Shown: piece after piece, positions 14,398 through 15,441 of the stretch
Layout of the letters: every line of letters begins with the position of its first letter
Numbering within the stretch: position 1 is the first letter of the stretch
Source: an uncultured archaeon
Lineage (GTDB): Archaea; Aenigmatarchaeota; Aenigmatarchaeia; CG10238-14
Assembly (NCBI GenBank): GCA_964392445.1
Contig: CAYMPD010000013.1
Span: forward strand, 1-34,045
Direction of reading: 5' to 3'
DNA: 34,045 bases
Notes under the pieces: generated by a model
Databases searched by the model: none
The model's input: the letters and a program-made list of their open reading frames with translations, nothing else
Told to the model about the DNA's origin: nothing
Position numbers and translations under genes: made by a program

Positions 14398-14427
14398 ATG
14401 GCCGGGGAATTAGTTTGCAAGGTTTGA
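14398..14427 (+). promoter_or_regulatory. Cys-codon leader uORF copy 1 (MAGELVCKV*)
   Basis: ATG 6-7 nt after GGTG(G). Nine codons with TGC at codon 7. Shares an 11-nt identical core GAATTAGTTTG with the leader at 15412. Confidence 0.5.
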
Positions 14428-14539
14428 ACTGAATTTATTTAGTTCTATTTCTTATCGCTTATCTTATAAAAATAGTGATATTCATTCCAACTATACCCCC
14501 CTTCCAAAGATTAATATTCTATCAAATAGAAAAATAATC

Positions 14540-15415
14540 ATGGTCCCAAATTTTTCATATTATGATATTAAAAGAAAGGTAAAAATCCCGGAATTTAACG
14601 AAAAACTAGCGGAATTTTGGGGTATATTATCGGGTGATGGATTTCTAACTAAAATAGGGAAAGTTCATAGATTAGGGGTTTGCTTTCACTTGAAAGATGA
14701 TATTCACTATTCGAGGTATGTTAAGTTGCTTATCAAAAACTTATTTAACATAGAACCGACCGTATCAATTAAGAAAAAAGAAACTATACTATATCTATTA
14801 GTACATTCAAGAGGTATTACAGATTTTATCAGTGAAAATAATTTTCCAGTAGGAATTAAGAAGGATAAATTAGAAATCCCAAAATGGATAGCTAATAATA
14901 AAAAATTTGTTAAGAGGTATTTAAGAGGTTTGATAGATACTGACGGTTGCTTATTTTACGCGAAGAGAGGAACTTATAAAGTCAATAAATATCCAGTAAT
15001 AGAAATAAAAATGCACGACAGAAGTTTCATTAAAAATATCGGATCGATAATTAATAATTTAGGATTTAAAATCGTAAGGCGAAAATATAAAATTCAACTA
15101 AACGGAAAACAAAATCTCAATAAATGGTTAGATTTAATTGGTTTTAAAAATATAAAACACATAACTAGATATTTAATATGGAAAAAATATGGGTTTTGTC
15201 CACCTGGAACAGATCTAAAAGAAAGATTAAATTTATTAAGCCGAGGGTTCGCCGAGGTTCCAAAAGGGCTCGAAGGCAGAACGGCTATGCAACCGATCTC
15301 CAAAAGAGAGTTGAAGCTGCAGAACTGGTATTTAAGCCAAGTTGCTGATACCGGTAGAAATGGGTTCGACTCCCATCCTCGGCTTGATTTTTCTAAAAGA
15401 GGTGAGTTTGAATGA
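14540..15415 (+). CDS. Free-standing double-motif LAGLIDADG endonuclease-like protein
   Basis: LAEFWGILSGDG and YLRGLIDTDG motifs. The last ~54 codons are encoded by the tRNA-Cys gene and its trailer. Confidence 0.88.
   Translation: MVPNFSYYDIKRKVKIPEFNEKLAEFWGILSGDGFLTKIGKVHRLGVCFHLKDDIHYSRYVKLLIKNLFNIEPTVSIKKKETILYLLVHSRGITDFISENNFPVGIKKDKLEIPKWIANNKKFVKRYLRGLIDTDGCLFYAKRGTYKVNKYPVIEIKMHDRSFIKNIGSIINNLGFKIVRRKYKIQLNGKQNLNKWLDLIGFKNIKHITRYLIWKKYGFCPPGTDLKERLNLLSRGFAEVPKGLEGRTAMQPISKRELKLQNWYLSQVADTGRNGFDSHPRLDFSKRGEFE
15251..15384 (+). tRNA. tRNA-Cys(GCA) with three introns (15259-15274, 15296-15315, 15323-15349)
   Basis: Exon join gives a 71-nt cloverleaf: acceptor GCCGAGG/CCTCGGC, D stem GCA/TGC, anticodon arm ACCGG-CTGCAGA-CCGGT, T arm ATGGG-TTCGACT-CCCAT, U73 discriminator. 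Introns 1 and 2 have strict bulge-helix-bulge (BHB) motifs; intron 3 has a relaxed one. Adjacent to cysK and cysS. Confidence 0.93.
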
Positions 15416-15441
15416 CTGGTGAATTAGTTTGTCAAGGATGA
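15412..15441 (+). promoter_or_regulatory. Cys-codon leader uORF copy 2 (MTGELVCQG*), overlapping cysK in the +1 frame
   Basis: Strong SD GAGGTGA 6 nt upstream. TGT at codon 7. The ATG overlaps the LAGLIDADG stop (ATGA). Confidence 0.6.

Follow-up and report, generated by a model that had tools for sequence, protein, structure and literature searches.

The cysteine locus and its mini-ORFs

The DNA considered here, referred to as the window, is a stretch of 34,045 nucleotides (nt) from an uncultured archaeon of the Aenigmatarchaeota (assembly GCA_964392445.1, contig CAYMPD010000013.1), and the elements in question are two mini open reading frames (ORFs) that precede genes for cysteine synthesis and for the charging of cysteine tRNA. 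The window is contig C13 of genome G000, which measures 1.2 Mb with 34.5% GC and is 95% complete; labels such as G001, G003 and G004 denote the related genomes compared with it. Along the window, the cysteine locus consists of a patatin-like gene, a Shine-Dalgarno (SD) sequence with mini-ORF 1, an ORF with a LAGLIDADG gene, a tRNA-Cys gene, a second SD sequence with mini-ORF 2, cysK and cysS (Table 1). The mini-ORFs can be recognized as two copies of a module that is conserved across Aenigmatarchaeota, members of the DPANN archaea, and that comprises an SD sequence, a start codon, any codon, Gly, Glu, any codon, NUU and a sensor codon, with the downstream gene always in the +1 frame. Taken together, these features appear to fit a site of +1 frameshifting best, beyond a mere leader peptide.

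A sequence-only reading of the window had described twin SD-led ORFs of nine codons, and the pair reads just as claimed: ATG GCC GGG GAA TTA GTT TGC AAG GTT TGA (14398-14427) and ATG ACT GGT GAA TTA GTT TGT CAA GGA TGA (15412-15441). Each holds nine sense codons with Cys at codon 7 and ends in TGA, the changes at Gly (GGG/GGT) and Cys (TGC/TGT) are synonymous, and the core GAATTAGTTTG is common to both. An internal SD-like element, GGGGA or GGTGA, stands 4 nt before GTT in both copies, and a TAG closes the +1 frame at the same place (14411-14413 and 15425-15427), which leaves the +1 frame of module 1 without a start codon. The two ATGs are preceded by GGTGGGT (14388) and GAGGTGAG (15399), respectively, and the 3' end of the G000 16S rRNA reads GGATCACCTCCTTT. 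A repeat search of the window also reported the pair as one repeat family, D4. The 21-mer of module 1 is present in identical form in G001, G011 and G013, and the SD sequence and leader of module 2 are nearly identical in G001, though the CysK bodies are only ~46-49% identical. A 10-nt match downstream of both copies, TT[TA]GAACTGA, is real as well. Its interpretation as a remnant of cysK did not hold, as the match after copy 1 is part of a conserved short +1 ORF, reading FARFELNL in G001 and FARFKLIF in G004.

A third Cys-type copy, ATG GTA GGA GAA TTA GTT TGT, is found elsewhere in G000 (C31:7628-7675), at the edge of a contig, close to tRNA-Ala and the 3' end of 16S. It has no SD sequence, uses GGA for Gly and opens a +1 ORF of only 22 codons, and thus looks like a decayed or chance copy.

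The reading frame of cysK

The CysK body lies in the +1 frame relative to the ATG of mini-ORF 2, and that frame is shut by the TAG within the module. The body is intact, with 298 codons and 77% identity to the cysK of G004; it contains the full PALP domain (PF00291), spanning residues 9-286 of the +1 frame and profile positions 4-295, and the motif SGSIKDR with the lysine that binds pyridoxal phosphate (PLP). The first ATG, GTG or TTG in this frame is codon 20 (ATG 15485), which is already inside the PALP domain, and a start there would remove the conserved LIGNTPLV strand.

The same arrangement is seen in the three relatives of the same genus that carry cysK (G001, G003 and G004), where an SD-led M-x-G-E-x-x-C ORF precedes xLIGNTP in the +1 frame. 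At the position where a +1 GTG could stand, G001 and G004 have GTG, G003 has GGG, and G000 has GTG AAT TAG. Since the layout recurs in three same-genus relatives, the frame offset is ancestral to the genus and no assembly error, an ancestry that the sequence-only reading had raised. That reading would have been overturned by relatives with a single in-frame MxGELVCKDD start of cysK and no leader. Such relatives were not found within the genus, where cysK stands in the +1 frame behind an MxGExxC leader; in other genera, cysK does have an in-frame start, and the module is instead located on an upstream gene for a winged helix-turn-helix (wHTH) protein.

Table 1 Features of the cysteine locus, with positions counted along the window
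Feature	Position	Strand	Remarks
Patatin-like phospholipase gene	13524..14357	+	Pfam PF01734, E 1.4e-35; conserved upstream neighbour of the Cys locus
SD sequence of module 1, GGTGGGT	14388..14394	+	3-6 nt before ATG 14398; complementary to 16S 3' end GGATCACCTCC
Module 1, 0-frame mini-ORF MAGELVCKV-stop	14398..14427	+	Proposed shift site GTT_T 14413-14416; Cys sensor codon TGC 14416-14418
+1-frame ORF from module 1, 333 codons	14414..15415	+	Stop TGA 15413-15415 overlaps ATG 15412 (ATGA)
LAGLIDADG homing-endonuclease gene (predicted)	14540..15239	+	Pfam LAGLIDADG_3; in frame with the +1 ORF
Partial duplicate of tRNA-Cys 5' end, 11 nt, GCCGAGGGTTC	15240..15250	+	Right edge of the LAGLIDADG insertion; directly upstream of tRNA-Cys
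tRNA-Cys(GCA) gene, three introns	15251..15384	+	Introns 15259-15274, 15296-15315, 15323-15349
SD sequence of module 2, GAGGTGAG	15399..15406	+	3' end 5 nt before ATG 15412
Module 2, 0-frame mini-ORF MTGELVCQG-stop	15412..15441	+	SD-like GGTGA 15418-15422; proposed shift site GTT_T 15427-15430; Cys sensor codon TGT 15430-15432
cysK (predicted PLP-dependent cysteine synthase) body, +1 frame	15428..16324	+	Pfam PALP, E 4e-77
cysS (cysteinyl-tRNA synthetase), last gene of the locus	16336..17733	+	Pfam tRNA-synt_1e, E 5.5e-102; own SD sequence and ATG

A module found across the family

The pattern RTGNNNGGNGAANNNNTTTGY matches 20 of the 22 genomes of the family, representing all 10 genera, with one to three copies each, while a reversed-pattern control gave essentially no matches, placing the real pattern far beyond chance. 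The usual order at the matches is the patatin gene, a module, tRNA-Cys, an optional second module with cysK, and then cysS. In relatives, the orthologue of copy 1 is the module that precedes tRNA-Cys, and the patatin gene is likewise the upstream neighbour of the Cys locus in G001, G004, G012 and G016. A strict pattern also detects modules in four further families of the class, again adjoining cysS or trpS. A locus search with CysS yielded four close relatives and is not an unbiased census. Finally, a looser scan of the fetched loci, which turned up variants such as GAG, GAC, a TTG start and other spacings, resulted in 63 validated modules from 34 genomes in 8 families, and these form the basis of the counts given below.

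The module in other genera leads into a winged-helix protein of the ArsR type with ~70 residues, which is encoded in the +1 frame immediately before cysK or cysS. These products need their N-terminal stretch, as helix 1 begins directly after TTT and the +1 ORF in G010 does not contain a start codon in any of its 61 codons.

Departures from the standard form are seen in G012 and G016, where a second Cys module (L037:1587 and L038:1587) has Asp in place of Glu and reads ATG ATT GGT GAC AAT/AGT CTT TGC. The copy in G016 heads an amidohydrolase-like gene (a weak Pfam match, below cutoff) between tRNA-Cys and cysS. In G009 (L046), a standard module stands on a similar amidohydrolase gene upstream of cysK.

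Where the frame would change

Several features of the 63 modules delimit the place at which a ribosome would have to leave the 0 frame. A start codon is present at SD distance in all of them (ATG in 53, GTG in 7 and TTG in 3), and the 0 frame behaves as a coding frame, as the Gly codon varies among GGT, GGG and GGC and the Glu codon between GAA and GAG, all synonymously. In 24 modules, including both copies in the window, the +1 frame has no ATG, GTG or TTG upstream of TTT. In 17 modules, the +1 frame is closed by an internal stop, in most cases a TAG that arises where TTA or CTA precedes G, while the 0-frame stop directly follows the sensor codon in G003, G007 and G018. The frame change is thus confined to N_TTT_GY, as the +1 frame is closed before TTT in those 17 modules and the 0-frame stop may come immediately after the sensor. 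The P-site codon is CTT in 27 modules, GTT in 26, TTT in 6 and ATT in 4, each followed by U, with TTT being fixed by the search pattern. The base after the sensor codon is variable (A 26, T 18, C 10, G 9).

The Gly codon is informative in two ways. Its wobble base is the second codon position of the +1 frame, which reads GTG, GGG or GCG, and a +1 GTG start is therefore not conserved. In addition, Gly is encoded by GGT in 49 modules, GGG in 11, GGC in 3 and GGA in none, while GGA makes up 37% of Gly codons genome-wide. The preference for T or G persists in the TAG-blocked copies (10 GGT and 5 GGG), where GTG cannot start translation. This bias would fit an SD-like GGUGA placed four bases before the slip codon, with the anti-SD read from the 16S 3' end, GGATCACCTCC.

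An RNA-based reading of the 21-mer together with a hairpin, as a small RNA such as a C/D box RNA, an SRP Alu domain or a T-box-like specifier, was considered and rejected. The variable sites follow codon phase, an SD sequence and start codon are always present, and the conserved TAGTTCT downstream corresponds to a Ser-Ser codon run of the +1 protein.

Sensor codons and the loci they precede

The sensor codon matches the locus in which it is found: UGY precedes tRNA-Cys, cysK and cysS; UGG precedes trpS, trpB-like, trpE-like and tRNA-Trp genes; and UAY precedes tRNA-Tyr and tyrS. The reusable Cys-sensing translational module that the sequence-only reading had offered as its first option was thereby supported and extended, as the module recurs at Cys loci throughout the family, and versions for Trp and Tyr stand at the corresponding loci. 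UGY modules lie upstream of tRNA-Cys, cysK or cysS in 19 of the 22 family genomes, and also in G020 with a TTG start. All 8 family genomes that contain both UGG modules and trpS have the modules 0.6-3.3 kb upstream of the gene and on its strand; elsewhere, UGG modules head trpB-like and trpE-like genes.

In G000 itself, four consecutive UGG modules occupy C19:18631-21959 (L056:2632-5963), heading, in order, a wHTH gene, an Asp/Glu-racemase-like gene, a +1 ORF running through tRNA-Trp(CCA) (C19:19717-19832) and a gene for a 122-residue protein. They are followed by a gene with a tRNA-editing domain (YbaK-like) and then by trpS. On another contig (C4:38694-42070; L057:2195-5571), a UAC module for Tyr, MKGECFY, opens a 51-codon +1 ORF through an intron-containing tRNA-Tyr(GTA), and a racemase-like gene, a YbaK-like gene and tyrS lie downstream. 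The Trp and Tyr loci of G000 thus share a gene set of racemase, editing domain and aminoacyl-tRNA synthetase (aaRS). In G071, a UAU module heads a prephenate-dehydratase-like gene upstream of tyrS. Across the order, matches to the Tyr pattern are mostly chance matches, and only those in G071 and on contig C4 of G000 are credible.

All sensor codons start with U, as slippage onto UUU would require it. When the slip run was replaced by CCC, AAA or GGG, a scan for otherwise the same leader produced a single weak candidate, for Lys, in G000 (C1:44652). This candidate (C1:44646-45890; L130:847-2092) has an SD sequence followed by ATG TTA GGT GAA CAT CAA AAG and encodes MLGEHQKI-stop. Its +1 ORF of 410 codons has a weak HMGL-like match (E 2e-4, below cutoff).

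Open frames across tRNA genes

The tRNA-Cys gene of the window is missed in its unspliced form by ARAGORN, with and without the intron option, and by Rfam. Once its three introns are removed in silico, ARAGORN calls a 71-nt tRNA-Cys(GCA) cloverleaf with U73 and a normal 7-nt anticodon loop. One intron separates positions 8 and 9, another interrupts the 5' strand of the anticodon stem, and the third occupies the canonical 37/38 site; two of these positions are common to G007 and G018. No other tRNA-Cys(GCA) was found in the G000 genome by ARAGORN. With the intron option, the program also lists two tRNA-like calls with four-base anticodons (gact and ggag) and a doubtful tRNA-Cys(aca) in this genome.

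The 333-codon +1 ORF that begins in module 1 is composed of a conserved N-terminal stretch, FARFELNLFSSIS, the LAGLIDADG gene and a read-through of tRNA-Cys. In relatives, a +1 ORF of 50-64 codons spans tRNA-Cys in the same way. Overall, the +1 ORF is open across the whole tRNA, introns included, in 13 of the 14 modules that precede a tRNA, and the distance from their end to the next start is 0-25 nt, in many cases in the form of ATGA, TGATG or TAATG. Over the same stretches, the remaining two frames contain 94 and 124 stops; at ~0.09 stops per codon in the other frames, an open run of 50 codons would have a chance of ~1% per lineage. Reading through the tRNA may serve translational coupling to the next start or protection from transcription polarity.

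The LAGLIDADG gene is predicted from its domain to encode a homing endonuclease (LAGLIDADG_3, PF14528; 29 bits against a cutoff of 22.5), and its ATG at 14540 has no visible SD sequence. As the syntenic loci of G001 and G004 lack the gene, it is a lineage-specific insertion. Its homologues, with at most 38% identity, occupy different loci, in many cases next to tRNA genes or within 23S rRNA. Those at L212-L222 (in G003, G004, G008, G009, G012, G013, G016 and G020) often end inside or beside the 5' end of a tRNA. Examples include L220, which runs into tRNA-Thr, and L216 and L217, with the tail ..IAPWCSGQA, while L214 and L222 belong to those that lie within 23S rRNA sequence.

Proposed mechanism and its alternatives

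Based on these conserved features, the module is probably a programmed +1 frameshift site that reports a shortage of its cognate charged tRNA. A ribosome would start at the SD-led ATG and read M-x-G-E-x-V, bringing peptidyl-tRNA on GUU into the peptidyl (P) site and UGY into the aminoacyl (A) site. With ample Cys-tRNA(Cys), Cys would be inserted and translation would end at the stop two codons on, giving a 9-residue peptide. When Cys-tRNA(Cys) is scarce, the A site would stay empty, and the P-site tRNA could re-pair one base forward, from GUU to UUU, and continue in the +1 frame, possibly aided by the SD-like GGUGA four bases upstream. At module 2, the shift would yield CysK, and low charged tRNA-Cys would thus turn on cysteine synthesis; P-site slippage predicts the junction peptide MTGELV-VKDDPLELIGNTP. 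At module 1, a shifted ribosome would read the +1 ORF, here with the LAGLIDADG gene, through the tRNA-Cys gene, and its termination on the ATG of module 2 would probably couple downstream expression to the first shift. The conserved anatomy, the missing +1 starts, the narrow shift window and the match of sensor and locus are observed, while slipping, its response to the level of charged tRNA and the effect of translating through a tRNA are the predicted parts of this scheme.

Several points weigh against the proposed frameshift. The open +1 GTG within GGTGAA, 7 nt after the ATG, is kept in 39 of the 63 modules and could be an ordinary start, so that frameshifting is strictly required only in the other 24. 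In G003, an in-frame ATG 9 nt past the leader stop could restart cysK. Re-pairing of GUU or AUU to UUU leaves a first-position mismatch. The Cys sensor is TGC in 26 of 33 Cys modules, while TGT accounts for 82% of Cys codons in the long ORFs of G000, an excess that is at odds with a simple rule by which the hungriest codon is used; the preference may reflect the residue in the +1 frame (Ala versus Val) or a need for efficient decoding when the tRNA is ample. The search patterns fixed RTG, GG, GAA and TTT-G/A, and the conservation of these letters is partly built in. Because the genomes are related to one another, the counts carry less statistical weight than they suggest, and all of the genomes are metagenome-assembled, with the evidence being purely computational. 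There is also no general stimulatory structure in the 45 nt after the sensor (mean z -0.4, with only 11% below -2), and hairpin covariation is not significant. A 6-bp hairpin with one compensatory pair occurs in wHTH-type copies. For tRNA-type copies, RNAalifold predicts no hairpin, and one proposed for them pairs in 83% of cells, yet no better than in shuffles. A downstream hairpin that stimulates the shift is no more than a possibility. A cmscan search of positions 14000-16000 against Rfam at E<=1 gave only a T-loop fragment, with no match to a known leader RNA or T-box.

The alternative that survives best, although unlikely, is an overlapping upstream ORF (uORF) combined with an ordinary start. 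Here, the genes would begin at the GTG in GGTGAA or at a near-cognate codon, and translation of the MxGExxC ORF, or stalling at its Cys codon, would modulate that start without any change of frame. The 39 modules with the open GTG and the preference for GGT as Gly codon speak for it, and stalling leader peptides are an established principle. Yet the remaining 24 modules, both window copies included, have intact and conserved bodies without a +1 ATG, GTG or TTG, and the T/G preference at Gly holds where a TAG blocks the GTG. Furthermore, the SD sequence is placed for the ATG and lies 12-14 nt from the GTG, and stalling at codon 7 would place the ribosome over the GTG and reduce expression at Cys shortage, which is the wrong sign.

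Termination followed by reinitiation, in which the ribosome finishes the mini-ORF and restarts nearby in the +1 frame, is improbable. While the downstream ATG in G003 would suit such a restart and stop-start overlaps (ATGA and TAATG) occur elsewhere in these loci, the first +1 start after the stop in G000 is 44 nt downstream, inside the PALP domain, and the wHTH genes of G010 and G013 are without a usable start. In addition, conservation of the +1 residues already sets in at TTT, before the 0-frame stop is reached.

It is highly improbable that copy 1 is a relic, as the sequence-only reading had proposed in its second option. In this scenario, copy 1 would be the leftover 5' end of cysK, duplicated when a LAGLIDADG/tRNA-Cys cassette inserted, and the cysK of G000 would be a frameshifted pseudogene. 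The two copies do flank the LAGLIDADG gene, and the 10-nt match follows both. Synteny contradicts the scenario, as orthologues of copy 1, in the order patatin gene, module and tRNA-Cys, are found in genomes without the LAGLIDADG gene (G001 and G004) and in genomes where no cysK was found (G005, G007, G008 and G015). The LAGLIDADG gene alone was inserted, with tRNA-Cys being native, the +1 offset recurs in 34 independently assembled genomes, and the cysK body is intact and close to that of G004.

Constitutive four-base decoding, by which a tRNA would read UGYN or NUUU as a quadruplet, could restore the frame by skipping one base beside the Cys codon and might recall the two four-base anticodon calls in G000, but it is scarcely credible, as gact and ggag match neither UGYN nor NUUU, the spliced tRNA-Cys has its normal anticodon loop, the base after the sensor is not conserved and the same module occurs with UGG and UAY.

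If the frameshift reading is extended to all of these loci, the modules could together form a general amino-acid-sensing system of Aenigmatarchaeota, a proposal that we regard as evenly poised. A portable 7-codon module (SD-AUG-x-Gly-Glu-x-NUU-sensor) would stand before regulators, biosynthetic enzymes and tRNA/aaRS operons, with the sensor naming the amino acid, and shifted ribosomes would cross the cognate tRNA gene and relay the shortage signal down the operon; in the window, a homing endonuclease would have inserted into the relay ORF. If true, this would answer how archaea with reduced genomes regulate their aaRS and amino-acid genes, using a compact design of ~21 nt. Annotation is affected as well, since cysK, the wHTH regulators, the racemase-like genes and others in these genomes will be shortened or given wrong starts by gene callers. 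Moreover, the fact that ORFs remain open over tRNA genes suggests a so far unexplored coupling of translation with the expression of tRNA operons.

Comparison with known systems

Leader-peptide attenuators (trpL, pheL and hisL) and T-box riboswitches read the supply of charged tRNA ahead of amino-acid and aaRS genes. The module would have the same function, as a short leader that reads charged-tRNA supply and contains a codon for the regulating amino acid, here Cys at position 7, and the general sensing system, if true, would be a functional counterpart of both. However, no terminator or antiterminator structure was found for the module and no Rfam match was obtained, and, unlike attenuators, it has one sensor codon rather than a run, and the gene overlaps the leader in the +1 frame, often without a start of its own.

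Antizyme is produced through a +1 frameshift that acts as a polyamine sensor in eukaryotes, with the shift at a stop codon and a pseudoknot downstream. The module would resemble it in that frameshifting is both the sensor and the effector of a metabolic feedback, while the stop-codon shift, the polyamine ligand, the pseudoknot and the eukaryotic host are features of antizyme.

A close parallel in design is bacterial prfB, encoding release factor 2, which is controlled by an autoregulatory +1 frameshift at CUU_UGA_C with an SD-like element upstream. In both cases, NUU followed by U would allow re-pairing at UUU, a slow A-site codon would set the rate, termination at an early 0-frame stop would be the default outcome and the logic would be that of a feedback loop. 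The GGTGA or GGGGA found 4 nt before the shift codon may correspond to the SD-like element that prfB has 3-4 nt upstream. The A site of prfB holds the stop codon UGA, whereas that of the module holds a sense codon (UGY, UGG or UAY; TGC and TGT here), and the sensed quantity would therefore be charged tRNA and not release factor. As there is no stop codon at the shift site, the module would work like prfB without being a member of that family. It also differs in that its site is at codons 6-7 of a mini-leader, which is reused on many unrelated genes, and in Archaea.

Frameshifting has been reviewed (PMC5009743), and the +1 sites of yeast Ty1, ABP140 and EST3 use CUU_AGG_C with a hungry sense codon (PMC5009743). 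In Ty1, CUU in the P site slips +1 during the wait for decoding of a slow sense codon in the A site, and the module would likewise slip at a sense codon. However, Ty1 relies on a constitutively rare tRNA for a fixed ratio, whereas the waiting codon of the module specifies the amino acid of the downstream genes, implying feedback, and re-pairing would be onto UUU. If true, the module would be the first case in nature of a regulatory device that uses frameshifting at a sense codon to report how much of a specific charged tRNA is available and to turn on the genes that restore it.

Literature searches returned no published description of such leaders. A review from 2021 (PMC8211752) records a single programmed frameshift that had been demonstrated for cellular genes of archaea, the -1 shift of fucA1 in Saccharolobus solfataricus. 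The module would share with fucA1 a programmed frameshift in an archaeal cellular gene. Yet fucA1 shifts -1 on A_AAA_AAT, in a single gene and with no known sensing role, and the module would, if true, represent the first programmed +1 frameshift in Archaea.

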